A model generated the notes under the pieces. It saw only the letters and a program-made list of their open reading frames with translations. It was not told where the DNA came from and did not search any database. A DNA stretch of 50,976 nucleotides, from positions 59,145 through 110,120 of the forward strand of contig MQRK01212308.1 of NCBI GenBank assembly GCA_001938485.1, written 5' to 3'. Origin of the DNA: Girardia tigrina (lineage: Eukaryota). Both the position numbers and the translations under genes were made by a program. Shown here piece by piece: positions 1,849 to 35,728 of the stretch (position 1 is its first letter; each line of letters opens with the position of its first letter).

Positions 1849-2163
1849 GACTTTTTTCTTTTTTTCTCTTTTTTTCTATCTTAAAGGTGTTAAGATAAGG
1901 TAATTTGTATTAACTCTGTTTAATATTAAATATATATTTTAGATCAATTTTAAGGTCACCCTGATTATAAGTAGTTTATATTATGCAAAAAAGTAAAGAT
2001 AAAAAAACTTAAATGTAATAGTAATTTTACCTTGTACAAAAGATAACAAAAAATTCTTTTGTTCAAAAAAATTCTCTTGTTATTTTTGTACCAGTCTTAA
2101 AAAAAGATCGAAAAACTTTCTAGGAATTTCTTGCGGTATTTTTGATTGCAATGTAAAATTTAC

Positions 2164-5100
2164 TTCTCTTCTGAGGCTCTTTTCGTGCTTACCAGTTCTC
2201 CTTCGTGTTTCGACAACCCTAAATCATGCTTTCCTTCAATCTCTTTCAACTGGTCTCCTGAAACGGTGTCAAATACCACAATTGATCCATTCAACATCGA
2301 TGCTGCTATTTCTACTCCGTCAGGTCGAAATGCTACTGCCAAAACTAAATCAAACGGCAACGAGATTGTATTTCAGTCACATGGATAAATAATCACAAAC
2401 CATCTGATGCCGTGTGAATCAGTTCCGAACTGTCACCACCGGACAATTGCCACACGCGTATCGTCTTATCCCAACTACCCGAAACCAAGTGAGTACCGCC
2501 TGCAACAGATGAAAATTGAACAGAACAAACCGGTTGTTCGTGACCAGACAAAGTGTAACAAAGTCGTCTGGTTTTCAATTCCCAAACGAGTACCGAAAAA
2601 CAATCCGAACCACCACCGGCTGCGACTAACTGACCAATATAATCACAACTAACACATGTGAATTGATGCGACCGCGTCTCGGCTGAGAGAGCGCAGAAAT
2701 TCTTCAATTTCGATATATCATATCCTCTGACAGTTCCATCGAGAGAACTCGAGAAAAATATTTGGCATTTTTTAGCGGGGAAAGCAATACCGGTGACGGG
2801 ACCACTGTGACTGTTGAATGTAGCACAACAACGACCGTTCGACAATTGCCACAATTTGACACTATTGTCATGACCCCCGGTCACTAATTGAGTTCCGTTT
2901 GGACTGTATTCCAAGCAATTGATAGTCGATCTCATGTGGCCTTTCGACTGGAAAATGTAACTTTGAGATTTCCAACAGAAAATGTTCAGTTCATTGTGAT
3001 CTCTACTACCGATTGCGATCCAAGAAGCGGTGTTATTAAAAGAGACGGTATTGATTTCTCCGGAGCTCACACATAGATAATACAATGGATTAAAATCTGG
3101 CATATCATGCACCAAAATTCTTCCATCGACAAAACCAGTGACGAGTAAATTTGCTTGACGATGAAAATCGGCGGCACTAACATCGACTTCAATGTTTTTA
3201 TAAGCCGAAACGTCGTTGTAGCGAAAGCTGGAAGAAGAAATATCGATTTGGTAAATGATTTTAAAAATAGTAAAATTAAATTCACAATTTCGGTTTTAGA
3301 TATGTAACGACATTTTTTTCTTTTCGGGTTTTTGAGGCTTAGAAAAATATCATTTTAAATAAGTCGTTAGTATGAATGAAATAAATAATTACCTTCGAAT
3401 TCTTCTTGTATTTCATCAGGACTTAGAAAATCGAGTGATTTATTACAGACCCAATAGCATAATTTTGCACTTTTACCAACACTTAACACATTTAAACTAT
3501 CTTTCATAAAAGAGGTTTTTATAACGGCCCCAATATCAAAAGATAGAGTGTATACAACTAGTTTGCTTGTTTTAAAAGCCGAATAAACCATTGTGTTCCC
3601 ATCATCACAGCCGATAACAAATGCTCTGATTTAACGACAGTATATTAAAATATACTTAGAAAACGGAATACAAACTTGGATGAGCTCGACCAATCAATTG
3701 ATGTTATGTTACCTTTAGCACCGTAATAAGTGCGTTGTTGACGCAATTGCCTATAAGGCTTATCTAGTTCTGGTGTGTAAAAAACAGTCACTAAGTTACT
3801 TCTTCCAACTGCAAACATTCTGCGAATTTAGTTAGTTATTTTAGTACCTTAAAAGTTTTGACAAATTATAATTATAGACCAAGGTGAGTGTTGTCATGTT
3901 TAGGAATTAAGACATTATCTTAGAATAAATTTAGATCGATTTAAAAATTTAAAATAAATTTTAGCGAATTAATTATGAAAAGAAAATGTAAAAAAATTTT
4001 GAATATGAATAAAATTGACAAAGAACTTTTAAATTGAATAACTTATGTTTCATAATTAAGGTATTTGATTTGAAAAATATTTGATTTAATTACATTGAAT
4101 TAACCTAAATAAAAGTTCGTTTTTTTGTTAGACTGACGTTCTTTTTACATTACCTTCATTTAAGTTTTTAAGTATACGTATTATCTTAGGTTTTATTTGG
4201 AAGATGTGTCTGTTTTTCTTTATTTTGAAATGCAATGTATTTTTCTAATTTCTCAAAATCGAAAAATTAATAAATTTTAATTTCTTGGATTTTATTCATT
4301 TAAATAATATTTCTATTTATAAATTATCCATCAAGGTTTATTATTAAACTAAGTAATTTTTATGGATGTGATTCATCATTTACCCTTTGTTGACCGCTGA
4401 TACTTACCAGTATCACAAATAATTTGACTATATTAACCGCTTAATTATTTGATTCTAATTTTATTATTATTTTTTTATTATTTATTATTTTTTTGAATAT
4501 GAACTTTTGAAAAAAACGTATAGAAAATTCAAATTTAATTTTTGAGTTAAATAAGAATTAAAATTTTTTATATATTTATCGTAATATTCTCTTTATAAGG
4601 GGGTAGTTTAAATTTAAGTTTCGTCAAAATATTTTATTATTTTTTAATTTGAAAATTTAAAAGAAATAAATTAAAAAACTAAAATGTAGAGTAAAAATAT
4701 GAAAAAAATAAATACTTATTTAAAATATGCTTACAGTAATAACAATTGATATATTTTAATAAAATTTATGAAATAAGTTTTAAAATAAATAATAACGGAT
4801 TAATATTTTAAGAAATAATTTTTTAATAAAAGGGTTTATTGTAAATTTAAATTAATTAGTTTTTATGATATAGTGTCGTAAAATGTTTGAATTAATTTAA
4901 AGTTTAAATTTCGTAAATTTTCAAAATTTAATCGAAAAATTTAATGAATTAATTTTGTGCGAAATAATTGAATTATTAAGAAATTTGTTTAAATATGTGA
5001 ATTGTTTATATTAATAAATTTTGTGGTGTTAAATTATGACTTCGGAATTTGATAATAATGAAAGTGGCATAAACGCTACTTACACTCTTGTCAATAAATT

Positions 5101-7115
5101 CTAAACCAATAAATCGTCACTATACATGGTTATCAATGTGTATGCAATTTTCATGTATGTGATGCTCAACTAACTCTTAGTTGACCGTCGATAGTTTCCT
5201 GTACGACAAATAATTTTCGCTTAATTATTTGATTCGAATTTTCCATATTATACTTTCTTTCTTTAAATATGAACCTTTGAAAATAAATGTATAGAAAATT
5301 TTAATTTAATAGTTTGATTAGTGAGGCGAATTAAATATTTATCCAATATGGTGTTGCTCTCAGAAAGATGGGTTGTGCATTGATGTGTGATACTTTAAAT
5401 GTGATGCTACTGGCAGTGACGGAGTGTGCTTAATGTAGTTCCCTTTATAATAGTGACTGTGTGATGTCGGTGAGCTGTACATGTGGTGTGTACATTGAGA
5501 CAACACACAATCCAATGTTTAAATCGATTGTCATGTTCTATATGATCAATTACAAGGTTGATATTAATATAAAGCTTGAAATTATTATACTCCCTCTGCT
5601 CAGAAATAATGTATACATTTGGGATAAATCTTTCCGATTATCAGGATAGATAATGATCTAGCACGTCAGAACCAACAACAATTTTCATGGTTACAGGTCG
5701 CATTTTTTAACAACATTTATATCATGCTTTCCTTTCCTCGTTTTAGCACTTCATAAAAGAATCTAGTTGTGATTCTTATTTTTGAATGGTGTTATTGTGT
5801 GTTGTTTGGTATGTTGTTTTAGGATTGTGTTTCTCCCACCTAGATGGAAGATTGATATTTTAAATATTTTAAAACGTCGGGTTGTTTAATCAATTATTAA
5901 AATTTAAATAATCACTTTAAAAATAAACTAATATTTCATTAATAATATTTAATAACATTTTCTTAAAATAAATAAAAATTATTTTAAAATTAAAGTATAA
6001 ATTATTTTTGTAATAATTAAATTGTAATTTAAATTTGTTTGAATAATAAGACGTTAAAGAATATTATTAAAGATTATCAATAAAGAAGGATGACGAGTTA
6101 CACAGGTTTTACGGAGAATTGTTCTAGTGGAAATTCAAATTGTGATATTAATAAATGTAAAGGAAACCCAAATTAATGTTCTTATTATTAGTAAAGAAAA
6201 TTGCAGCACTTAACACAAATTAGAAATGTAAACATTATTTAGGAACAGAGAAAGTATTTTTTATTAATAGGCCCGTTTAAATTAGTGATAAAAGATTGAT
6301 GAATGATAAAAGCCGTGACAGAGTTATATCCGGAAAGAAATATTCTTTTTAAATTTCTTTGTTTTGAAACTGTTTACAAGTGAATCAGTGAACTCAAAGC
6401 AAAGCAAAATTTTCTATTCTAGAATGAACCAATTAATGTTTCTTAAACCTCAAAATTCTCTATATTTTATCGTTAAATTCTCTAACTTGCCTCTAAATTC
6501 CAAACAAATAAATTGTCCTTATTCTACCAAATCGACGACAACACTCAAAAACACTCGGGTCATAAATATAATTTATCCAATCGATTTGTTGTCCGTCAAA
6601 AAACGTATTTACTTTCCATTGGGACTAAAAGAAACGCTGTGAACCTTCTGATTGAAATTGTGAGTATTGATTTCATTGCCGGTGATCGTCGATATAATGT
6701 GCATAAAACCCTCTGTCCCAGGAGAACGAAAGAGAAAAAAACAAAAAAATTATCAAAATAGATGGAATAAAAAAACCTTCGTTAATGCACAACATAATCG
6801 GATCGATCGGCGATAAAGCGACAAAATCGATATTATAAGAGCTGTCTACATCGATTGTTTCAATTTCATCCCTGCAATTCGTAATAATCAATAATAAATC
6901 GGCATGATCGATTAGAATCTTTTACCGATTGATATGTAAAACGGAAATATTATTTCCAATCGGGCTGAAAAGAGTTTTTCCGTCGGGTGTGAAACAAATT
7001 TGGCCGTTTTGATAACTGGCGCCGATTGTTGCAGAAAACTATCGGTCAAAAATCTCTTTCAACAACAAAAAAATACAAAAAACAACAAACAATTTACCTG
7101 ATAATTATACTTCAT
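2164..7115 (-). CDS. PWP2: Periodic tryptophan protein 2 (WD40, SSU processome UTP-B), exons 1-9; gene continues past the window's left edge
   Basis: Hand-spliced with GT-AG introns and consistent phases. Exons: 7115-7098, 7038-6926, 6871-6777, 6712-6613, 3819-3676, 3625-3393, 3337-3286, 3227-2401, 2344-2164 (587 codons, no stop). Translation MKYNYQFSATIGASYQNGQICFTPDGKTLFSPIGN..HSVSFSPNGK..LLVTGF..YSPNGTQLVTGG..SSLDGTVR..SGSWDKTIR..AFRPDG..IEGKHDL follows PWP2 colinearly. Introns are 50-64 nt except intron 4 (2793 nt). Confidence 0.93.
4386..5343. repeat. Two diverged direct copies (~170-180 bp) of a dispersed repeat in PWP2 intron 4 (about 4386-4570 and 5177-5343)
   Basis: Shared gttgaccg..gata..cacaaataattt..cgcttaattatttgattc..aatatgaac.tttgaaaa..gtatagaaaatt..aatttaat. 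Confidence 0.7.
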
Positions 7116-7514
7116 TCTTTTTGCTTTAAATTAGTATTATTTAAACAAACTTGTTTTTTATTCAAATTCTTCTTTCAATTTTAATAATGATTTAAATAGT
7201 GATGATAAAAAATGCATATATTTATCTATTTTTTCTCTATCTTATTTTTTGGAAGGTTACGAATTTTTTTATCAACATAATATTTTTTAGTAAAATATTT
7301 GTAACATTTCTTTTGAGAAAAAAATTTTTTCTAATTGAAAATTAATTATTTTTTCTAAAGTATATATTTTTTGGAAATCCGAAAAAAACGAAAAATGCTT
7401 TTTATTTGATTAAATATTTAAATTTTAAAAATCAATAGAAGAAAAAAATTATTAATTACTGTGTCACAATTGATTTTATCAGCACTACACAACTATACTT
7501 AGAAACTTATCAAT
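7116..7514. promoter_or_regulatory. Putative bidirectional promoter between PWP2 and the otopetrin-like gene
   Basis: The divergent ATGs are 400 bp apart. The region is TE-free and rich in poly(T)/poly(A) tracts. No TSS evidence. Confidence 0.5.
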
Positions 7515-8939
7515 ATGAGTGAAATTGAAATTGATGTAAGAAGAACAGAAAATGAAAGAGAAAAAATCTTTAGAGATGATTTGAAAAATACGAGCCTTAA
7601 ATTCATATGTGTTTTATATTTTATTGTTGGTGTAACAGCATCTTTTACCACCATCAGTAGAAAATTAGATCACACAGAAAAAGGTTTCTGTTTTTTTGCG
7701 TTTTTCATGTCGATAGTAATTATTGGTCAAATGCTTAGCATTATATGGATAATTTGTAACAGATATTCTCAAATCAATTTTTCCGGACGAATTGTAAGCA
7801 TTAAAAAACATATATTACTTTATTTCGTTATAGTACCCCTTATGGTAATCGTTCTAATTTATTTAATCTTACAAATAATTCAAGAATATCAAAAATCAAA
7901 TACATTAATGATTGCTTTTACGATTTCTCAAATTATTTTCCTTTTATCAGTAATCATATTAATGATTGATCATGGAACGGAACAAGAAACAAGTAGCCGA
8001 ATGCAGACTGATTTCGTTCATAAAACTTCGCTATTAATTACTGTGATTGGTGTTTTCATTTCCTTTTTATTTTACATAACACGCCAGGAGCTAAATGTAT
8101 ATTTTATGGTTCATCAAAATAGTACAACTCCAATGAATGGAACAATTGAAAAAGTAGAAAATTTTCTATTTCCAGTTCATATAGCTTTTTTAATCATTAC
8201 TTTCGGTTATTTATTAGGCTTTCTTCAAAAATTTATAAACCCAAATACTGCTGATTTTAATAGATCTATTGAAGAATCTAGCGAACTTCCTTTTAGAATT
8301 TCTTTTTTCTCAATAATTATCGGTGTGATTTTGATTGTTCTACCTTTAGTTAGTCTATCTGTAATACACATAAAAGGACAATTATGTTTTTTATATCATA
8401 CTTTTACTTGTATCGTCTACTGTTTTGGAATGTTACTTTCTGTTATACAAATTTTGGAAATCAAAAAATGGAAAGAAAAACGTGTCAATGAAACTTTTAT
8501 TGTTGATAAATTTTTGATGGGAATCGGTTGTTTCGGGCAAATTGTGTTTGCCATTGTAAATATTTCTAGAGTGTGTCAATTTTTTACAAATGACCCTAGT
8601 GTTTATGCAATGCTTGCAGTTAGTTCTGTATTTCTTTTAATTCAAATTGCTTTACAAAATATTGTTATGCATTTAACATTTACTTGGAGACTTAAAAAAC
8701 CCGTATCAAGATCCGTGGCAGATATATGTTGTCCATCAGTCGGATTACTATGTCTTAATCTTGGCTGTTTTTTCCTATCGTTCGATCAACCCTGTGTACC
8801 AATAAACGAATTCGCTGAACCTTTGGCAGTTAACCTATTCCATAAAGGATTATCTATCATTTCTATGTGTTTTGCTCTTATACATCGACTTCATGGAATA
8901 GTTTTTTTTGTTTTACTGTTAGTTAAGCTTCACAATTAA
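7515..8939 (+). CDS. Divergent otopetrin-family (proton-channel-like) 12-TM protein, intronless, 474 aa
   Basis: About 12 hydrophobic segments in two 6-TM halves. Motifs FLFP (TM6, cf. YLYP/FLFP), VDKFLMGIGCFG (cf. LDxxLLxxxxxG), IQIALQNIV (cf. QxxLQxxFI), LLCLNLG (cf. LLxxNxxxW) and IHRLHG (cf. FYRxHS). N-glycosylation sequons lie in the TM5-6 loop. AATAAA at 8992. Confidence 0.8.
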   Translation: MSEIEIDVRRTENEREKIFRDDLKNTSLKFICVLYFIVGVTASFTTISRKLDHTEKGFCFFAFFMSIVIIGQMLSIIWIICNRYSQINFSGRIVSIKKHILLYFVIVPLMVIVLIYLILQIIQEYQKSNTLMIAFTISQIIFLLSVIILMIDHGTEQETSSRMQTDFVHKTSLLITVIGVFISFLFYITRQELNVYFMVHQNSTTPMNGTIEKVENFLFPVHIAFLIITFGYLLGFLQKFINPNTADFNRSIEESSELPFRISFFSIIIGVILIVLPLVSLSVIHIKGQLCFLYHTFTCIVYCFGMLLSVIQILEIKKWKEKRVNETFIVDKFLMGIGCFGQIVFAIVNISRVCQFFTNDPSVYAMLAVSSVFLLIQIALQNIVMHLTFTWRLKKPVSRSVADICCPSVGLLCLNLGCFFLSFDQPCVPINEFAEPLAVNLFHKGLSIISMCFALIHRLHGIVFFVLLLVKLHN

Positions 8940-10007
8940 TTTTTAAGAAATGTTTTGTTTTATTTTATTGATTTTTGTTTGTTTTAATTTAAATAAAAAT
9001 TCAAAAACATTTGTATTAATAGAAACCGAAATTAGTCAAACTTAAATAAACAAATCGGGAAAGCTAAACGAATATTGCATTTTTTCGTAAATCAATGTTG
9101 TGCGAATATAAACAATATTCATGACATTGAACATGATTACTTGTCACTTTTATTATATTTATTTAAATCGATTAATAATTTCAATAAAATCAGACAGACT
9201 TTTCTGTTGAAATTGTATTAAGTTAAAATATTCACACACAAATAAGACAGTTTAATTAAATTCTCTTAAAAAATTTTGAAATAAACAATTATCTTCTATT
9301 GTATTTTGAAAATATAATAAACATAACATAAAACCGTATTAATATTGAAAATTATTTTTGTTTGTATTTAAAAATTCAATATTTTAAAAGAAAAACTATA
9401 AATTTTTTCAATTGTAAAATAGTTTAATGAAGAAGAATCTACCAAAATCAATGAGTCAGTTTATGTTCATATCTGAATAAACTTGCTTATTTTCAGTTGT
9501 AAATCAAGGCCGATTGTTATTTATTACTTTTCAAAAGTATTTTTTAAAGAAATATTTTTTAAATGAAAATTGTTCATTTTTTAATTTGAAAAAAATAGTG
9601 AAAATGTTAAGTAAATTTTATCATGCATTTAACGACAGTATTTGCCATCACTTTTGTTGATGAGATAAATTATTCTTTTCAAAGATTATTTGGAGAGATT
9701 ATCAATGATCTCTAAATAATTGTTGAGATGATAGTTGGTGCTTCAGTTTCTCTAACTTTTTCTTTTCATACAACATCGCTTATTAAATATTTTAACCTAA
9801 AATCGAATCTTGATTTAATATTGGAAAAATACATTTGTGCACTAAAGCGTTTAAAATTAAAGTTATCTGAGTTTTGTGAGAATATGTTCATGGCGTATAA
9901 TCGGATAATGTTTTTGACAACAAGGAAAAATATTTTGAAATTTTTCAATAATTCGTATTAATTCTTTTAGCAAATTCTCTATATCAGCAATAAAAAGTGT
10001 TACATGT

Positions 10008-10316
10008 TGTGAGAAGTGGTTGCAACCTCAATATCATGATTCATTTTTTTAACACCAAAAATTTATTTTTAAATAGATATTTTATTTTTATGATTTTCTT
10101 TTATTATATAATTTTTAATTTTTTTAAAATATTTAAAAACACTTTAAAAAATATTTTATTTTTAAAAAACGTTTTTGATTTTTAATAGTTGTTTTATTAT
10201 ATCATTTTTAATTTTAAAATATTGAATTAGCATATTAACAGAAAAATATTTTACCCTTTAAATTAAAAAATAATAAATTATTCAGGCGAGATAAAAATTT
10301 AAATTAAGTCCTCATA
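10008..10316 (-). repeat. 3' LTR of the Gypsy element (TATGAGG...TCTCACA), internally shortened
   Basis: Adjacent to the PPT. Both ends are homologous to the solo LTR at 28671-29235. Confidence 0.85.
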
Positions 10317-11475
10317 TTCCCCTTCTTTAAGAATTTACTCAATTTTTCCACGTTTCGATCTAAAATTCTTCCATCTTCATTTATAAGTTTATACCTTCTA
10401 TCGTGTGTTTTCTCTAACACTTTATACGGTCCTTCATATTTATCTTTACTCTTTATCCCCGTTTCCACCTTGACTAGTACTTCATCTCCAATTTCGAAAT
10501 TTCTTCTGGTTGCTGTGTCTTCTTTTTCTTGCTGTACCTTTATGTCTTGACTATGCCATCTTTCTCTGTATATTTTCTTACTGAATATAATTTCTACTGG
10601 CCTCTTCCCTATTGTTTTCTGAAAAGTTGCGTTTAATGTGAATTCTATTTCCGGTAGTAGTTCCTCCCAGTCTGATCCTTTCTTTGTATGTAACGATGCG
10701 TTTAAATATTCTCTAATCATCCGAAATTGTCTTTCTACTATTCCATTCATGTTATTATGGTACGGACTCGAGTAACACATTTTTATATTCATTGATTCTG
10801 CCATGTCTTTGATTACCTTCGATTCGAATGTCTTCCCACAATCTGTATGTATTTCCTTCGGCGCTCCAAATCTCAAGATCCATTTGGTCATTATGATGTC
10901 TTTTATGGTTATTTCATCCTGCTTGCTAATGGCTGTCAAAGATATGTAACTACTAAACTGATCTATGATTGCAACAATAAACTTTTTTCTTCTCCAAGTT
11001 TCCTTTAGTGGCCCGCATATGTCTATGTACACTTTCTCAAATGGTTCATTTGCAACCAATGTCACCCGTTTTTTCTTCATAGCGGTCGTTAATGTTTTAC
11101 TTTTTTGGCATGCTTCACATTGTCCAATTACTTCTTTTATTATTTCATTCCGATTGATCATGTCATAATTTTCAGAGATGTATTTCGTTACTTTCTCTGC
11201 ACCCGCNNNNNNNNNNNNNNNNNNNNNNNNNNNNNNNNNNNNNNNNNNTTTTTGACTTTGGTATCCAAATCTTCCCCATGTTTGTTCTTATTATGCTGTC
11301 TTCAATCGTAAGCTTTCTGTCTTTACCTGAACTTGGGTCTCTTTTAATTTCTTCTATTTCTTCTTGTTGATATTTGAATATCTGCGATGTGTCCAGCACG
11401 ATGATTCTTCGAGTCTTTATCTTCATCATTTTAGCATCTTCATGAGCCATCAAGCATTGTGTACATGTATCACAT

Positions 11476-12167
11476 GGTACGCCGACTTTACCGCGGCGAC
11501 TTTACCGCGGGCGACTTTACCGCAGGTGACTTTACAGCGGGCGACTTTACCGCGGAAAATTTACAACAAAATTGTCAATAAGTGAACAATATCATCTAAA
11601 ATATGAATAAAAATTTTTAATTATGTTATGATAAAACAATGAATTATACACGGGTTTAATTTGAAAACATAAATGGATAGAAAATTTCAGATCGACATTT
11701 AATTATTTTTTTTAATATAAAAAATAAACAAAGAACATACGAAAAATTAGTAAATTCCTAATTTAAAAAAAATTCAAATTACATTCTAGAACAAATGAAT
11801 AACACACAAAAAACTGTGATGTGTAAATAGAAGAAAGATACAAAAATATTAAACTGATATATTAAAATAATGGAATAATAAATATATACTCGTACTTTAA
11901 TCCAAAAAGTCTAAATTATGAGCAACGCCTCTAAGATAATCCAATATTGGTAAATTAATGTATTGCTCAACGCCACGTTCAATCCTCTCACTTACTTTGG
12001 CATAATTTTGCGATGAGAATTGTGGGAATTCTTCAATTCTAAAGAGAATTCCAATGCGCCGCAAAATTAGTTCCACAAAATCTTGATCAGTACGAAATCG
12101 ATTTATCACAAAATCGATTTATACGAAATCGCCGCGGTAAAGTCGCCCGCGGTAAAGTCGCCTCACC
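11476..12167 (-). mobile_element. Non-autonomous MULE deletion derivative nested in Gypsy pol
   Basis: 9-bp TSD GTATCACAT on both sides. Inverted arrays of 15-bp GCGACTTTACCGCGG subterminal repeats. Retains the transposase C-terminus (LDYLRGVAHN). Removing it restores Gypsy QNTCDTCTQC. Confidence 0.88.
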
Positions 12168-12296
12168 GTATCACATGTATTCTGAGACAACATATCCGCG
12201 ATGGAATGATCTGTTCCTTTTCTGTATTCTAAGTGTATGCCAAGACTTGATAAATAATTAATCCATGTCTGAAATTGCGCCGTTATCGGTTTTTTT

Positions 12297-13074
12297 ACCA
12301 CGTTTTTATTAGCTTGCTTTCTTGTCTGTCTGTTTGACTGTCTGGAACAAATCTTGCGATTGATTTTTCGACCACGTTTAGTCATCCAATTCAGCTGAAA
12401 TTTTTTATACAGACTTGCTTCCGATGACAATACAATTTGATTAAAAAAATTTTGAAAAAAAAAATTTTTTTCTAATTTTTTTGCAAAAAACCACTTACGA
12501 TTATCTACAAATTTATACACTGTATTAAATAGCAATCTTTTCGTTTATTTTCATGAATGAAGTTTTATACAGGCTTGCTTCCAATGACAATACAATTTGA
12601 TAAAAAAAATTTTTAAAAAATTCCTAAATGATTACTAAAAATAGTTAAATAATATTATTAATAAAAAAATTTTTTTATAAAAACAACCACGTTTTTCAAG
12701 CATTACCAATGCACTAAAAAGAGGAAAATAATTNNNNNNNNNNNNNNNNNNNNNNNNNNNNNNNNNNNNNNNNNNNNNNNNNNAGCATTACCAATGCACT
12801 AAAAAGAGGAAAATAATTTTTTCTAGATATGTGAGAAATTTTATACCTAACCAAAAACGTGGGGCATAGAAATAATCGATTGTTACTAAAAAGCAGTAAA
12901 GAAGAAATAGCAGTTACTAATAGCAGTAATTCAGAAATCCGCCCCAAGTTTTTGGTTAGGTATAAAATTTTTCACATATCTAGAAAAAAATTATTTTCCT
13001 CTTTTTAGTGCATTGGTAATGCTTGAAAAACGTGGTTGTTTTTATAAAAATTTTTTTTATTAATAATATTATTT
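12297..13074. mobile_element. Non-coding insertion in Gypsy RNase H; Helentron/DINE-1-like, with a long inverted repeat
   Basis: Splits AITFMVKT|KKPITAQ at a T-run with no clear TSD. Contains ACCACGTTTTT/AAAAACGTGG inverted motifs, GTCT repeats and a CAGCTGAAATTTT motif. Inverted arms about 12647-12866 and 12941-13074. Confidence 0.6.
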
Positions 13075-15125
13075 GTTTTAACCATAAACGTAATTGCCTT
13101 ATGATGCGTTCTCAAAGTGAATCGCTTCCCGTATAAATAATGATTAAAATGTTGACAGAAGTAATACATTGCCAACAGCTCCTTCCTAGTAATGCAGTAT
13201 CCTTTTTCATGATTATTCATAGAGTGTGAACCATATGCAATAACTCTCTGACGTCCATCCTTGTCTCTTTGGGATAATACTGCTCCAATCGTATCGAAAC
13301 AGGCATCAGTGTCCAGTATAAATTCTTTCTTGAAGTCTGGGAATCCTAGAATCAGTGGTGTTGTTAAAGCCTCTTTCATCTCTGCAAATGCTACATCACA
13401 TGCGTTTATCCATAACAATTTCTTCTTGTTCAATCCACACAGTTGTTCCAATGTCTTGGCCTTTGTTGCGTAGTCCTTAATAAATCGTCTGTAATAATTG
13501 CAAATTCCAAGGAAACTTCTTAGATTCTTNNNNNNNNNNNNNNNNNCAAATGTCTTTATGGCTTCTAATTTAGATGGGTCCGTCTGTATACCTTTATCAT
13601 TAATTACATGTCCCAAAAATTTAACTTCCGTTTTTAAGATATGGCACTTTTCCGGATTAATTCTTAAGCCTACTTTCCCGATTTGGTCCAATACTTTATT
13701 CAAAGTTTCGTAATGTTGTTCCAACGATTTTGAAAATATAAGAATGCCATCTAAATATACCACTGTCTGTTCTGTCTCCAAGCACCTTTGCCATGAGTTC
13801 CTGAAACGTTCCCGGTGCCGCTGCTATACCAGAAGGCATTCTATTGAAACAAAATTGTCCTAGCTTTGTGAAAAGTGCTGTTTTCAGCTTTGAATCTTCC
13901 TCTAGTTCGATCTGGTAGTATGCATTGCGTAAATCAATTGATGTGAAATATCGGGTTCCATACAATCTGTCCATCATTTCTATCATATTTGGCATAGGAA
14001 ATGTCTGTCTCCCGTGACTAGTTTTAGCTGTCTAAAATCCAAGCAAATTCTAACATCATTCTTCTCTTTCTTCCATACACAAATCATCGGTGTATTCCCT
14101 GGTGAATTAAATTTCTTAATAATGTTGTTTTCCCACAAATTCTTAATAGTCTCATCGATCTTTTCTTCCAGATTAACTGGTTGCCTATGTGGTCTAAGGT
14201 TAATTAGAGGTCCTTTCGTGTCTATTCTATGTTTAATCATCGTCGTACATCCGATANNNNNNNNNNNNGCCATAAAAACTCCTTGGTGTTTTTTAACAAT
14301 ATCCACAATCTTTGGTTTATCTGCAATTTTCATAATTTCCATGGCTCTTTTGAATCTTTCCTCGTTTGTAACCTTACGTTCAAATTTGGCTTCTAAGTTG
14401 TTCGTTCACACCATTTTCTTTCTTTTTCCAATGTAACTCGATTCCAAATGCCATCTGCAGTTCTATTCCTTCTATTATGTCTGGTTTTACGTCATTTACT
14501 ACAATGAACGTTATATTTCTCCGTTTTTCTTTAATTTCTACGTCCACTGAAATTTTACCCATACAATCTAGTTGACTACTGTTCGCACAGTTTAATTTAA
14601 TATCTGCCTTTTCTAATTTTACGTTCGTTAGTTTCTCAAAAATCTTTCTGTAGATTACATTTACTCTTGCACCTGTGTCTAATAAACAATCCTCCACGTT
14701 ACCTTGTATCATCAACTTTATACTCGGCCGGCCTTGCATTCTCACACGATATATTTTCTGCTTTCCATTCATCTATTGACAAAATCCTGGCATTTTCTTC
14801 TGTGTTCTCTTCTTCAATTGTTCCCACTAAACATCGTCCAAGCTAGTCCTCAAAAGTTTCTTTCTTTATAAATTTCCGTACTTTATCATTTACTCTTGCT
14901 TTCCTTATCTCAACATTCCTTTCATCGTCTATCACTACGTCTATAATATTTGATATATTACTTCTTCTCCGGTAAATCTTAGAAATAAAATTGATAAAAG
15001 TCAATTTCATTGCTAAAACCATTTAAAGTTATTTTAGATTCATTAGACTTTTGTAAATTTTCTAAGGTTCATCAATTTTAAATTTCAAATTTTTGTTAAG
15101 ATTGATTTTCCACTTTTTAATTTAA

Positions 15126-21203: not shown

Positions 21204-23109
21204 CGGTACGTGACGTTTTGGCGCCGCCGTTTTGGCGCAGGTCGTTTTGGCGCGAGGTCGTTTTGGTGCTACCATTTTGGCGCTGTATCAATTGTTGCAA
21301 TTTTAATTAAAAATAGGTAATCAAAATTTCATTATTGACAGACCATATGTATATTTAAAATCTCCAATAAAATTCAATATTTCCGTATATATTTCCGTAT
21401 ATAATTCCGTATATATTCCCTAAAATAGTTTTTTTTTAAAAAACAAATGGAAAATGTTCAGTCGAAGCGTGGAAAAGAAAAATTTACCCACGGAGGATAC
21501 CTTTATGTTTTCGATAAGTTTAGCTCAGACGCTTCCAAGAAGTTCTGGCGATGTGAACTGAAAAACGAATGCAAGGCTCGTTTACACACGACTGTCGATA
21601 ATGATCGTGTTCTGAAGCAGATGAACCAGCATAGTCACGGAAGTGATGCAGCGCAACTTCGAACTGCCATGATAATAACAGGAATCAAAAGGAGGGAAAT
21701 AGATAAGGCAATCCAATTGGAGGGCAATCCATCAGTAATCCTCAACAGTGTTCTCCAAGGAACCTCGAGTGCCGTTCAAGCGAAGATGCCAAAGAAAGAC
21801 GACATTCGCAAGGTTATTCAGCGTTTTAGAAAACACAATCAAGCAGCTCCTCCACAACCGGTCGATCGAGCTTCAATTATCATTCCGGATGCATACAGAA
21901 TTTACAAAGTCTCACCAGATCAGATGGAAGAATTTCTTTTATGGGATTCCGGAGAACAAGATGAAGATCGTATTTTTCTCTTTGCCCGACAGTCGAATGG
22001 TGATTGGAGTAACCAAATGGACAGACTGTATGTGAATGGAACATTTAGCTTAGCTCCTGCTCTTTTTGCACAGATATATGTAACCATGGCAAACGGAAGA
22101 GGATTTGTGCTACCGGTTCTATATGCTCTGCTACCGAAAAAAGAAGAAAGAACATACCGACGATTGTTTGAAGCCATTAAAGAATTGTGGCCATATCTCA
22201 ACCCATCGTCAATTTCTGTTGACTTTGAACAGACCGCAATTGTAGCTATTCGGGCTGTGTTTCCGAATTGTGCAATCCATGGATGCCTCTTTCATTTGAC
22301 GAAGAACATGCGGAAGAAGCTAGCAGAGGAAGGTCTGCTTAGCCCATATAACATCGATCCTGAATTCGCTTCGTCTGCCAGAATGATAGTCGCTCTCTCC
22401 TTTATTCCAATCGAAAACCTTGATGGTGCTTTGGAGGCACTGGAAAACGAAATTATGGAGGACCTCACACCAATAATAGATTGGTATGGGCATGTCTATA
22501 TTGGACGCCAAAGTCGTAACCAGACTCGACGTCGTGCATTATTTCCCCCTCATATGTGGTCTGTCTTTGAGAGAACTGTGAATGGAGAGGATCGAACCAA
22601 CAACTATGTGGAAGCAGCACATCGAAGATTGCAAGCCGAATTCAGGGTGGATCATCCAAACATTTGGAAATTTATAGACGGCATTCGAGGTATTCAAAAA
22701 GGACGTGACCTTATATATGAGCAATTCGTTCGTGGAGATCAACCGCCTTTAAAGCGCAGAAAATACGTCGCTGCAGATGCCAGGATCAGAACAAATGTTG
22801 GGACTTACAGTGAACGAAACATCATCGAGTACCTTAGAGGAATCGCTCATAATTTTTTGATGGACTAATAAACACGGACTTTTGATTTAATAAAAAATGT
22901 TTGAGTAAAATGTTTTTTTAAGTATCTTTTTTTTGAGTATCCATCTGTAGAAAACAGATTTTTTATAAACGTAGAGTTGACACAGCGCCAAAACGAACTT
23001 GCACCAAAACGGCTTCGCGCCAAAATGACCTTGCGCCAAAACAGCGGCGCCAAAACGGTCGCGCCAAAACGGTCGCGCCAAAACGGTCGCGCCAAAACGT
23101 CCTGCTTCG
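21204..23109 (+). mobile_element. Full-length MULE (FLYWCH-type) DNA transposon
   Basis: 9-bp TSD ATTTTTGGT/ACTTTTGGT; inverted arrays of ~15-bp CGTTTTGGCGC / GCGCCAAAACG repeats at both ends; internal transposase ORF. Confidence 0.92.
21447..22868 (+). CDS. MULE transposase, 473 aa, uninterrupted; first catalytic Asp replaced by Asn
   Basis: FLYWCH finger (FWRC..CKARL..HSH), LYVNGTF (normally DGTF), SVDFE, GCLFH, RTNNYVEAAH. Confidence 0.9.
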   Translation: MENVQSKRGKEKFTHGGYLYVFDKFSSDASKKFWRCELKNECKARLHTTVDNDRVLKQMNQHSHGSDAAQLRTAMIITGIKRREIDKAIQLEGNPSVILNSVLQGTSSAVQAKMPKKDDIRKVIQRFRKHNQAAPPQPVDRASIIIPDAYRIYKVSPDQMEEFLLWDSGEQDEDRIFLFARQSNGDWSNQMDRLYVNGTFSLAPALFAQIYVTMANGRGFVLPVLYALLPKKEERTYRRLFEAIKELWPYLNPSSISVDFEQTAIVAIRAVFPNCAIHGCLFHLTKNMRKKLAEEGLLSPYNIDPEFASSARMIVALSFIPIENLDGALEALENEIMEDLTPIIDWYGHVYIGRQSRNQTRRRALFPPHMWSVFERTVNGEDRTNNYVEAAHRRLQAEFRVDHPNIWKFIDGIRGIQKGRDLIYEQFVRGDQPPLKRRKYVAADARIRTNVGTYSERNIIEYLRGIAHNFLMD

Positions 23110-33100: not shown

Positions 33101-35728
33101 TGAGTGTATCAATTATGCACACGCATTTGACACTGCTGTTTATTTACAGTCACGAAGCTCAAATCTTTCATGTTCCATCCAGTCCATTCCTTTAAGACGT
33201 CTTCCAATTGTCTCTTTGGTCTTCTTCTTGGTCTTTCCTCTTCCTCTCTTCCTTCAATAATTGCCTTTGCCAGATCTATTATCTTATCTGATTTCTATCG
33301 AATTTCAGCTTCCGTCTCTTCACGAAATTTTCTAAGGATTCCGGTCTTTCATCTTATGTTTCTGTCACTTTCTTACAGACAAAGTCGTTTGTTCTAATTT
33401 CTTTCCACTTAATCCTTAGCATTCTTCTGCAGCACTTTGTTTTAAAAAAATTACGCGCTATTCTCATTTTATGTTCAACTGTCACATTAATAGAGATGTG
33501 TTACTTAGACAGCAGACTTAGTAATCTTCATTCTGCTCTTGAGGTTGATTTCTTTGAGGTTAAAACTGGACTAAGCCTAATCATTGCGCTTGTTACAATA
33601 TTAATCGTGTTTCAGATTTCTTATGTTGTTCCTTCACTTAAAATTTAAAAACTCTTAACTTATACCAGCTCCTTCCTTCAATGTCATTCTCAAGTTTGAC
33701 CTCGTTGTACTAGTTTTCTGAGACCATTATTTTAGTTTTTTCTTTATTAATTTTTATTTCAAATTTCTTAGACACTTTGTGCAGTCTGTTTATAAGTTCC
33801 TGAATAGCTGCCTTGTTTTGTAAATTAAATCTATGTAGGTTTGTTATTCTTGTTACTTAGCAGCTTATTCCAACATCGTCTAGGTCTACTTTAGGGTCCA
33901 TAATAATGCTTTCAACGAAAAGGTTGAACAGAGTTGATGATAGAATATAACCTTGTCTTACTCCTACTGATGATTTGAACCAGTCACTAAATTGCTCGAT
34001 TATAAACACTTTGGTATTTGCGTCTTCATAAAGACTCTTGATAATTCTCGTAATATGTTTTCCAATATTGTTTTGATTCATAGTGTACCATAAAGCTTCA
34101 TATCACACTACGTTAAAAGCTTTTTTAAAGTTTATAAAATTTGAGAAATTATTCTTTTGTGTTCCCTGGTCTTCTCACAAATCCACCTTAGGTTAGTTAT
34201 CTGCTCCGTAGTGATATGGTCTTTTCTGAACCCTGTATGCATCTCAATGAGAATATTAATGAGAATATTAACATAACCTTTGATATATGACTTATCAAAT
34301 TACTTGTTTTTAAGTCGCTGTACTTTTTGCTATTCACTCTCTTCGGAATAGGAATTAGAATGGATTTAGTCCATTGCGAGAGCCAAACTCAACTGTTTAA
34401 AATTTTGTTGCACATTACATAGAAAATTGCTACTGTATTTTCGTTTCCATTCTTGATTAATTCCGTACTGAAATTGACCATCTCGGGGCCTTTGTTTATC
34501 TTCATACCTTTTATGACAGCATCTATGTCTGATTTTCAAATTTGGCATTCCTGATCTTCATGATTTCCTTTGGTTTCCACATCTTTAGAAATAACGCTCC
34601 GGCCAACATCCTCTTTGAAATTGTATAGTTCGCTGCATTATTCTTTACACCTTTGATCAATTTCTGTATTCTATGTTACCTTGTTTCAATCTTTATCCTC
34701 AATTACACTATTTTGTCCTCATCCTGGCTCTGTTATTTAAACGCCTCTCTAGAAACTCATTCCAAAGGGTAGTGAAATATAAACTGTGTATTGGATGGAA
34801 ACCTTAAAAAATAAGAACGTCTGATCTTCTCCCAATGCTTTGGATGAAAGAGTGAAAACCTTCAAGTTAACCTAACCCATTTTAATAACTTAATTCAAAC
34901 TCCTTCGTTTTCATTATTTGTAAAAAATTAACATTTTTCTGTGAGCGATGCAATTTTTTGATGCAATCAGTATAATAAGCATCAATAAACTAATAATTTA
35001 AAAACATTGACAATGTAAAAATAAAATTACTTTGAATAATGATGTCCTCTTTGTTGAACGTCAGCGAATCTATTATTGGAATGCTTCAATACTCGAAGAT
35101 TCCTTACCACAATTTTCATTTTGACAATAATCATAATCGTACAAATGGTCATCATTATTGTTGGTATTAAATAATAAAATATCAAACTTAAGGCGGGTCT
35201 CACTTTTTTTTCGTAAAACTTAAATGAATGTTTGGCTCCACAAATTGTATAATTTGTGCCACTGATTTTTGAAACAGTGAGAGTAAAAAAAATTGGAAAA
35301 TTTTTTAAAAAAGACAAAAAGAAAATCCCAATCAAGATGTAAAGAGTATTTCTTTGAGATTTCCAAAAGGAACTCTTCATAGGAAACACTACAGCTATAA
35401 GTCGGTCTACCGTAATTACTATTAAGGTCCATATTGATATATCTCCAACGAAAAACATTATGAATCTCTGAAGAATACAGTCCAAATTAGATCGAGTTAA
35501 AAGATCCTGATTTTCATTAAACCCTCGGTATATATTGGGAATAGTTCCGACTAGGAGTAAAATACTGTCCGTAAGAGCCAAAATCCGAATGTATATAGTG
35601 ATTGTATTGGTACGAAAACTTGGACGAAGAAAAATATAAAATATAAAACTATTTCCAAACAATCCTAGAATAAGAATGATGAGCAAGGGATACGTTTTCA
35701 AATTCCAACTGATTGTTTTGATGTCCAT
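24137..35728 (-). CDS. Class A (rhodopsin-like) GPCR, FMRFamide/peptide-receptor-like orphan; 3 exons, 337 aa
   Basis: Exons 35728-35031 (TM1-5: GLFGN, LALTD, DC, VDRLIAVVFP), 29515-29348 (TM6-7: SLTNMSIAINILFLVLLTP..ITNILVFSHHA) and 24284-24137 (NFYLFFITGRRFRREV..stop). Both introns are GT-AG phase 2; 1014 nt open frame. Confidence 0.9.
25884..27314 (-). mobile_element. Tc1-like (DD34E) transposon, mostly hidden by N-gaps
   Basis: 24-bp TIR TACTGAGCGTCAAATCTTTTAAAA flanked by TA at both ends; AKSPDLNIVEDCWKTISDLVYDGKQF reads down from 26341. Confidence 0.88.
27670..27822. mobile_element. Small MITE with internal CTAAC-like repeats
   Basis: Imperfect ~30-bp TIR (GAGTTAC..AATTTCCTCAGTGAATT); flanks GTGAAATC/GTGGAATC. 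Confidence 0.65.
28671..29235 (-). mobile_element. Solo LTR of the Gypsy family at 10008-14970, in GPCR intron 2
   Basis: Near-identical ends to LTR 10008-10316; perfect 5-bp TSD GAATT; includes an N-gap. Confidence 0.92.
29921..30295 (-). mobile_element. Tc1/mariner superfamily (rosa/DD41D-like) 3' fragment
   Basis: FPQSWIGR..WSSRS and FLWGYLKDLVYAQRSNSLQQLK; TIR-like TACAACGTGAGCCAAAAGTC. Confidence 0.7.
30647..31586 (-). mobile_element. TRIM-like miniature LTR element: 940 bp, 105-bp LTRs, GC-rich non-coding interior
   Basis: Direct repeats 30647-30751 and 31482-31586 (TG..CA, 8 mismatches); TSD CTTAG/CTTAT; PPT AGGGGAGCG on the minus strand next to the left LTR. Confidence 0.85.
33063..34720 (-). 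mobile_element. Decayed RTE-clade LINE, 3' half of ORF
   Basis: FINFKKAFN, GVRQGYILSSTLFNLF, C-terminal IIEGREE..RRRPKRQ.ED..KEWTG, and a GAA/A-rich tail. Confidence 0.85.

Follow-up and report, generated by a model that had tools for sequence, protein, structure and literature searches.

The window, by which we mean the whole 50,976-nucleotide stretch analysed, is AT-rich and comes from an animal assembly of 1.43 Gb in 255,254 contigs. On its forward strand, positions 7515..8939 hold a single-exon open reading frame that runs from ATG to TAA without a break and encodes a 474-residue, twelve-helix protein of very probable otopetrin descent (P0001). The original prediction described an intact frame of this length with twelve transmembrane helices; the translation and an AlphaFold2 model with twelve long helices agree with it, and all of the motifs that it quoted are present in the translated protein.

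Contigs spanning the frame were assembled from four public runs belonging to three studies and cover 7465-9002 (X1), 7550-8942, 7480-9009 (X3) and 7498-8889; all are colinear with the genomic DNA and free of joints. The 5' limit of X1 at 7465 is a loose end of 12 letters, which we take to be left by a template-switch primer from cDNA synthesis, and a likely polyadenylation signal, AATAAA, lies at 8992..8997 (+), with X1 and X3 ending at 9002 and 9009. The joint-free contigs, the loose end and the AATAAA together make it likely that the transcript is an intronless mRNA with short untranslated regions (7465..9009, +). The flank 9064-9255 had zero cover in the four runs compared; the contig ends hint weakly at the ends of the transcript, since that comparison had neither a DNA run nor a silent stretch as control. 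The same stretch is present in 15 runs from six studies under four organism labels, the runs being RNA by guess, and near-identical copies occur under all four labels. The runs that assemble it are small (8-12 Mb). Contig X1 also shows, at window position 8911, a one-base deletion in a run of T that is absent from X2 and X3 and is probably a sequencing or assembly error.

P0001 lies head-to-head with a multi-exon PWP2/Utp1 gene on the reverse strand (2003-7038), which extends beyond the left edge of the window (L199:5730-6329) and whose 2393-3103 stretch matches PWP2 at E 2e-61. Residues 7-42 of PWP2 are encoded at 6925-7038 and precede P0001, which rules out that P0001 is nested in a PWP2 intron. 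Between the first coding stretch of PWP2 and the 5' end of P0001 is an AT-rich gap of ~430 bp (7039..7464) that could possibly serve both genes as a promoter. This placement suggests a retrogene origin for P0001 and perhaps explains why it is detectable. A second family member was found neither in the window nor in its flanks of ~9 and 10 kb (about 70 kb in total).

Elsewhere in the window, a fragmented LTR-retrotransposon pol occupies 10304-14772 (-), 1.4 kb downstream of P0001, with an integrase (rve, E 7.5e-14) and, identified by eye, pieces that resemble a protease, an RT and an RNase H. An intact 473-residue frame at 21447-22868 (+) combines FLYWCH with a MULE transposase, and a 233-residue frame at 35027-35728 (-) encodes ~5 helices of a rhodopsin-family GPCR (7tm_1, E 9e-20; Srx/Srw-like), the remainder of which is perhaps encoded by a further exon or has disappeared. 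In the assembly at large, pieces of COX1 occur at 31 places (e.g. L136-L139, L197 and L198), most of them with stops and frameshifts; mitochondrial DNA copied into the nuclear genome is thus frequent here. One COX1 fragment reads WNNVSS under code 9 and WKKVSS under code 5, with a margin of 0.7 bits in favour of code 9 (131.8 vs 131.1 bits); as the Asn is generally conserved, the source is likely a flatworm, probably a planarian.

Otopetrin descent and the paralog family

P0001 alone gave no match to Otopetrin (PF03189) in Pfam at E<=1 and nothing among PDB sequences at E<=10. Neither P0001 nor A2 found a homologue in a word-indexed protein search, whose sensitivity was low enough that A2's own library rows were also missed, and the protein atlas has no entry for P0001 or P0003. 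A YiaAB match (E 0.0035, below the cut-off) was set aside as a hydrophobic chance match. Since single-sequence searches give nothing, the identity of the protein rests on profiles and fold.

A search of its own genome with P0001 reached 24 other places at 22-30% identity, and several of the matched contigs also bear long single ORFs that score weakly for PF03189; six of 65 family rows match that profile at E<=0.01 (best 7e-10). A 13-row family profile, run against 1.84 billion proteins, retrieved ~20 unnamed relatives first and then ordinary otopetrins; the 42 more distant matches scanned (P0019 and P0021-P0060 less P0046) are Pfam otopetrins, except P0029 and P0053, which are family rows. The same 13-row profile found no otopetrin in the PDB. 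The 65-row profile reached the mouse OTOP2 structure at E 1.5e-11, and hhalign of the 65 family rows against 31 canonical otopetrin rows gave a probability of 99.0 (E 3.5e-18) over 392 columns at ~12% identity. With otopetrins also the best fold matches in the PDB, the ancestry proposed in the original prediction is, in our judgement, almost certain; a match of P0001 alone to the Pfam profile did not materialise, and it is the family profile and the fold that match.

The closest known proteins are OTOP1-3 and C. elegans OTOP8 (PF03189; PDB 6nf4, 6nf6, 6o84, 8ug4-8uga), which give the best profile and fold matches and share with P0001 twelve helices in two halves of the same order, together with the C-half Asp, Gln, Asn, Arg and His. 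P0001 differs from them in being compact, single-exon and below Pfam detection, in lacking the TM6 Glu and the N-half Gln, Asn, Arg and His, in having IHR for FYR, and in the predicted packing of its halves. The family also differs in size: it counts at least 66 genes, where vertebrates have three, the fly three and C. elegans eight (the last two from PMC9909269).

Family loci were fetched from seven single-protein searches and two that were Pfam or window-based. With a minimum length of 430 residues, they yielded 69 different closed ORFs (452-549 residues, median 493), each a single ORF and all 69 matching the family profile, which fall into 66 clusters at 90% identity and 64 at 70%. The figure of at least 66 paralogs is a floor, because a subset of the matches was retrieved and the searches evaluated a subset of their candidates. 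Tandem arrays are present, with five copies on contig C235964 and two or three each on C203228, C251784, C214851 and C186678, and broken copies with stops or frameshifts occur. The family counts as a lineage-specific expansion. P0001 itself has no close paralog in the genome (best 25%).

Family and ordinary otopetrins are split by a branch with support of 100 in FastTree (112 rows) and of 99 for a 59-row subset under an IQ-TREE mixture model, although branches are long and long-branch attraction is therefore possible. The genome's ordinary otopetrins, of which about six distinct ones were seen, stand on the opposite side of this branch in the unrooted tree, so that the family forms one clade, much as the original prediction of a lineage-specific subfamily had it. 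These ordinary proteins (L001-L003, L004-L006, L007/L011 and L008-L010) share the genome and fold family of P0001; unlike P0001 they match Pfam at E 1e-31 to 1e-66, are intron-split where this can be seen (on C249335, profile positions 7-62 lie ~9 kb from 159-434) and, in L001-L003, have PCAIEY and FFRFH intact. Several sub-clades of the family have as their partners in the tree unnamed proteins that come from outside data sets (L031 with P0002, L051 with P0005, L017 with P0010 and L079 with P0006); the expansion is therefore old and predates those lineages. A literature search, from which supplement-only transcript identifiers and most subscription papers fell outside, returned no paper on otopetrins in planarians or Schmidtea.

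Polar residues in the two halves

In PMC11343839, the proposed proton path runs between the two halves, from a TM6 Glu to a TM12 His, and otopetrins are dimers whose activity is controlled by inter-subunit contacts. For XtOTOP3, PMC6483595 reports that Glu321Gln and His669Ala/Gln abolish the current, Glu321Gln killing all of it with both barrels intact, and that mutants of the N-half triad mostly conduct, in contrast to the C-triad Gln and Asn mutants. Three proton routes are left possible in 10.1101/542308, which places the conserved interface between the halves on TM3, 5, 6 and 12.

The register of P0001 on these proteins was taken from hhalign and from an independent MAFFT L-INS-i alignment of the 65 family and 31 canonical rows, which concur. 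The N-half (TM1-6, residues 1-250; 7515..8264, +) is hydrophobic at the canonical polar sites, as had been read by eye from TM4 LLSVII, TM5 VIGVF and TM6 PVHIAF. V146 (7950..7952, +) stands at the TM4 triad Gln site and V180 (8052..8054, +) at the TM5 triad Asn site, the Gln and Asn being present in 31/31 canonical rows. FLFPVHIAF aligns on the canonical FLFPCAIEY, and within PVHIAF (residues 220-225; 8172..8189, +) A224 replaces the relay Glu and F225 the triad Tyr in both alignments. The TM3 Arg (28/31 canonical rows) has become V105 and the TM5 His (30/31) I175.

These losses extend across the family. Glu at the TM6 column is found in none of the 65 family rows and in 26/31 canonical ones; an Asp or Glu occurs between positions -3 and +10 of the site in three family rows and within four residues on either side in eight. 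Near the TM4 Gln site, a single row has Gln, Asn, Glu or Asp. For TM5 the register of the family is soft, because 28/65 rows have Asn, Asp, Gln or Glu within three residues of the Asn site; P0001 is not among them. The cores of TM3-5 are depleted of strong polar residues relative to the canonical rows, and TM9-12 are not.

The C-half (TM7-12; 8304..8936, +) gives the best otopetrin match and keeps D331 (TM9), G341, Q377, Q381 (TM10), N415 (TM11), R458 and H460. The Gln, Asn, Arg and His that the original prediction had located in LQNIV, CLNLG and IHRLH correspond in the two alignments to Q381, N415, R458 and H460. IHRLH (residues 456-460; 8880..8894, +) is an altered FYR.H motif in which Tyr has become His (H457), a replacement also seen in 1/31 canonical rows, and the Arg and final His are kept. 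Retention across the family is uneven: Q381 is conserved in 49/65 rows, N415 in 53, R458 in 46 and H460 in 24, the TM12 His being lost in the other 41. P0001 thus belongs to a conservative grade with D331 and H460, both of which are gone from the most expanded sub-clades. Retention of the TM9 Asp together with the TM12 His appears correlated across rows (Fisher p 4e-6), a pattern to which independent pairs lend no support (five pairs, median p 1).

Loss of the Glu alone is not unique to the family, because 5/31 canonical rows also lack it: the library otopetrins P0036, P0144 and P0114 (Gln), P0026 (Met) and P0137 (Val). Unlike P0001, these five retain the two Gln/Asn pairs as well as F[YF]RFH and fall on the canonical side of the tree.

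Predicted packing and selection on the two halves

The AlphaFold2 model of P0001 comprises twelve long helices and one short one (pLDDT 88.7, pTM 0.89). Its first ten Foldseek matches are all otopetrins, as are the first twelve chains in VIA-align (Z 14.8-19.5 over 315-379 residues) and the top four in a structure search among 48,161 chains (Z 14.8-19.0, 342-379 residues, rmsd ~15 A). The two halves align with those of otopetrins in order, at an rmsd of 14.3-15.5 A and a target TM-score of 0.29-0.44, against 2.2-4.8 A, Z 31-37.5 and a TM-score of 0.68-0.85 for an ordinary otopetrin folded in the same way from 31 rows. The halves of P0001 are accordingly predicted, with high pTM in one model of one member, to pack unlike those of the solved otopetrins. 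The odd packing may be a true re-packing after loss of the Glu, a domain swap, or a dimer interface formed within the chain. In the family no helices are better conserved than TM3 and TM12, while TM6 has slipped, which favours a domain swap or an artefact.

A single half also matches ABCC/SUR1 TMD0 (up to Z 12.7), as well as TTYH and BmGr9, hits that were judged generic, as the control otopetrin reaches TMD0 too at Z 9-10.7; the N-half aligns to BmGr9 at Z 8.3-8.4 and rmsd 4.4-4.8 over 158-191 residues, within the range of common helical bundles. Matches to MFS proteins are insignificant, with TM-scores of about 0.15-0.2.

Silent and replacing differences show that P0001 is under purifying selection, its N-half included. 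Against the ORF, contig X8 has 19 silent differences and 15 replacing ones (pN/pS 0.22, p 2e-5, from site counts that ignore transition bias), divided into 13 silent and 7 replacing in the N-half (pN/pS 0.15) and 6 and 8 in the C-half; X3, with 6 silent and 8 replacing, is not significant alone (p 0.07). Among paralogs the median dN/dS is 0.36 over 39 non-independent pairs at 55-97% identity, and the N-half is usually the lower, except in one sub-clade near 1. The ratio is thus not near 1 for P0001 or for the paralogs overall, and the N-half of P0001 is maintained rather than decaying. The exceptional sub-clade, the young L106, L107 and L109, has N-half dN/dS of 0.81-1.02 and C-half dN/dS of 0.39-0.52; its N-half is under relaxed or positive selection.

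With the topology borrowed from otopetrins and columns that are not independent, the outer helix halves of the 66 own-genome members are more variable than the inner ones (2.95 vs 2.36 bits; N-half 3.02 vs 2.25). The corresponding values for the canonical rows are 2.24 vs 1.90 overall and 2.15 vs 1.96 for the N-half. Outer pockets that have diversified over a conserved inner face would be expected to give a pattern like that of the family.

Possible functions of the family

The TM6 Glu being absent, P0001 is likely not a classical proton channel, and without this Glu, the N-half triad and FYR it falls outside the functional proton-channel class despite its otopetrin descent. For the family as a whole, we consider it probable that the classical relay is missing. 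By analogy with XtOTOP3 Glu321Gln, the classical proton current is likely to have been lost from P0001. The original prediction had suggested a half-dead channel. The purifying selection on the N-half speaks against this, as does the position of the lost Glu between the halves (PMC11343839); and since loss of that residue abolishes all XtOTOP3 current (PMC6483595), it is the whole relay rather than half of a channel that has likely gone. The further proposal that P0001 is a natural experiment on which pathway conducts is confounded by the ~12% identity to the canonical rows and by the possibly different packing of its halves.

The best reading of these data, also among those first suggested, is a putative sensory receptor family derived from otopetrins and including P0001, which we hold tentatively, at a little under an even chance. 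Chemicals would bind at the variable outer face, the ligand site being perhaps a hydrophobic vestibule of the N-barrel or a pocket between the halves, for which the small molecules bound at the OTOP1 inter-half interface (PMC12549899) offer a precedent. Onward signalling would fall to the conserved C-barrel and inner face, and the output could be an ion current through the Gln/Asn/Arg network of the C-barrel. Nematode otopetrins are found in sensory neurons, according to PMC9909269.

Chemoreceptor expansions derived from channels include the insect gustatory and odorant receptors, the ionotropic receptors and the chemotactile receptors of octopus. The family resembles them in its lineage-specific birth and death, compact genes, tandem arrays and variable outer face, an analogy that does not imply homology.

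Several observations weigh against a receptor. The outer halves of canonical otopetrins are also the more variable overall. P0001 stands alone in about 70 kb, faces a housekeeping gene head-to-head and is assembled in small runs, which suits broad expression better than a rare receptor; it also keeps every C-barrel residue (Gln, Asn, His) whose mutation kills the current in PMC6483595. In its most far-reaching form, in which planarian-type flatworms turned an otopetrin into a chemoreceptor superfamily of at least 66 genes, with the Glu-His relay abandoned, a ligand site in a hydrophobic N-barrel and halves re-packed or domain-swapped, the receptor reading is possible but on balance unlikely.

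The retained C-barrel residues and the mostly conducting N-triad mutants of XtOTOP3 leave room for a proton or small-ion channel that still works through the C-barrel alone and serves pH or ammonium handling. P0001 keeps D331, Q377, Q381, N415, R458 and H460; Gln, Asn, Arg and His are all kept in 22/65 rows, 16 of which also have the Asp; the damaging XtOTOP3 mutations are those of the C-triad (PMC6483595), and 10.1101/542308 keeps three routes possible. H222, a protonatable residue two positions before the Glu site, might act as a substitute proton acceptor, but it is found in P0001 only among the 65 family rows. Against such a channel, Glu321Gln abolishes the current with both barrels intact and the relay model requires the Glu (PMC6483595 and PMC11343839), the His is also lost in most of the family, and a single pH function leaves 66 genes with diversified outer faces unexplained. 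We regard this channel as unlikely, the case being stronger for P0001 than for its family because P0001 keeps the whole C-half network.

If the halves were truly re-packed, the protein could be a carrier, or a channel for lipids or solutes between the halves, rather than a receptor. A pTM of 0.89 combined with a superposition so much poorer than that of the control would fit this, but a domain swap or a within-chain dimer interface gives the same numbers in one model of one member, the MFS matches are insignificant, and TM3 and TM12, helices of the canonical interface in 10.1101/542308, are still the most conserved of the family; we think it improbable. Slightly less probable still are subunits that do not conduct themselves but join ordinary otopetrins to tune them, the modulatory role raised in the original prediction. 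The control of otopetrin dimers by inter-subunit contacts (PMC11343839) and the presence of ordinary otopetrins in the same genome are compatible with pairing, but at least 66 genes for about six distinct partners, ~12% identity to the canonical rows and diversification on the outer face make it a poor fit. A retrocopy in decay or under neutral drift, for which the intronless gene beside a housekeeping promoter and the broken family copies could be cited, is largely refuted by the silent and replacing counts (pN/pS 0.22, N-half 0.15) and also faces the open frame, the confident fold and the near-identical copies under four organism labels, which make it very improbable.

In published descriptions otopetrins form a small group of proton channels, with three genes in the fly and eight in C. 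elegans (PMC9909269). At least 66 selected genes, mostly invisible to Pfam and without a residue thought essential for conduction, indicate that the fold is open to other use. If sensory, they would be a new candidate chemoreceptor family. Planarian-type flatworms are amenable both to RNAi and to atlases at the single-cell level. Any members that still conduct would test the Glu-His relay model directly, and the family forms a natural series from keepers of the Asp and His, such as P0001, to members with almost no polar network. The Glu-less ordinary otopetrins P0026, P0036, P0114, P0137 and P0144 would be cleaner tests of the relay than P0001.

P0036 and P0144 are sisters with the same TM6 Gln, which makes that change likely natural. 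Separately, the TM12 His is missing from two Pfam-positive otopetrins of this genome, L004/L005/L006 (FRMISI) and L008-L010 (YQIISI), the latter also lacking the Arg; this is a second, separate loss of a relay residue.
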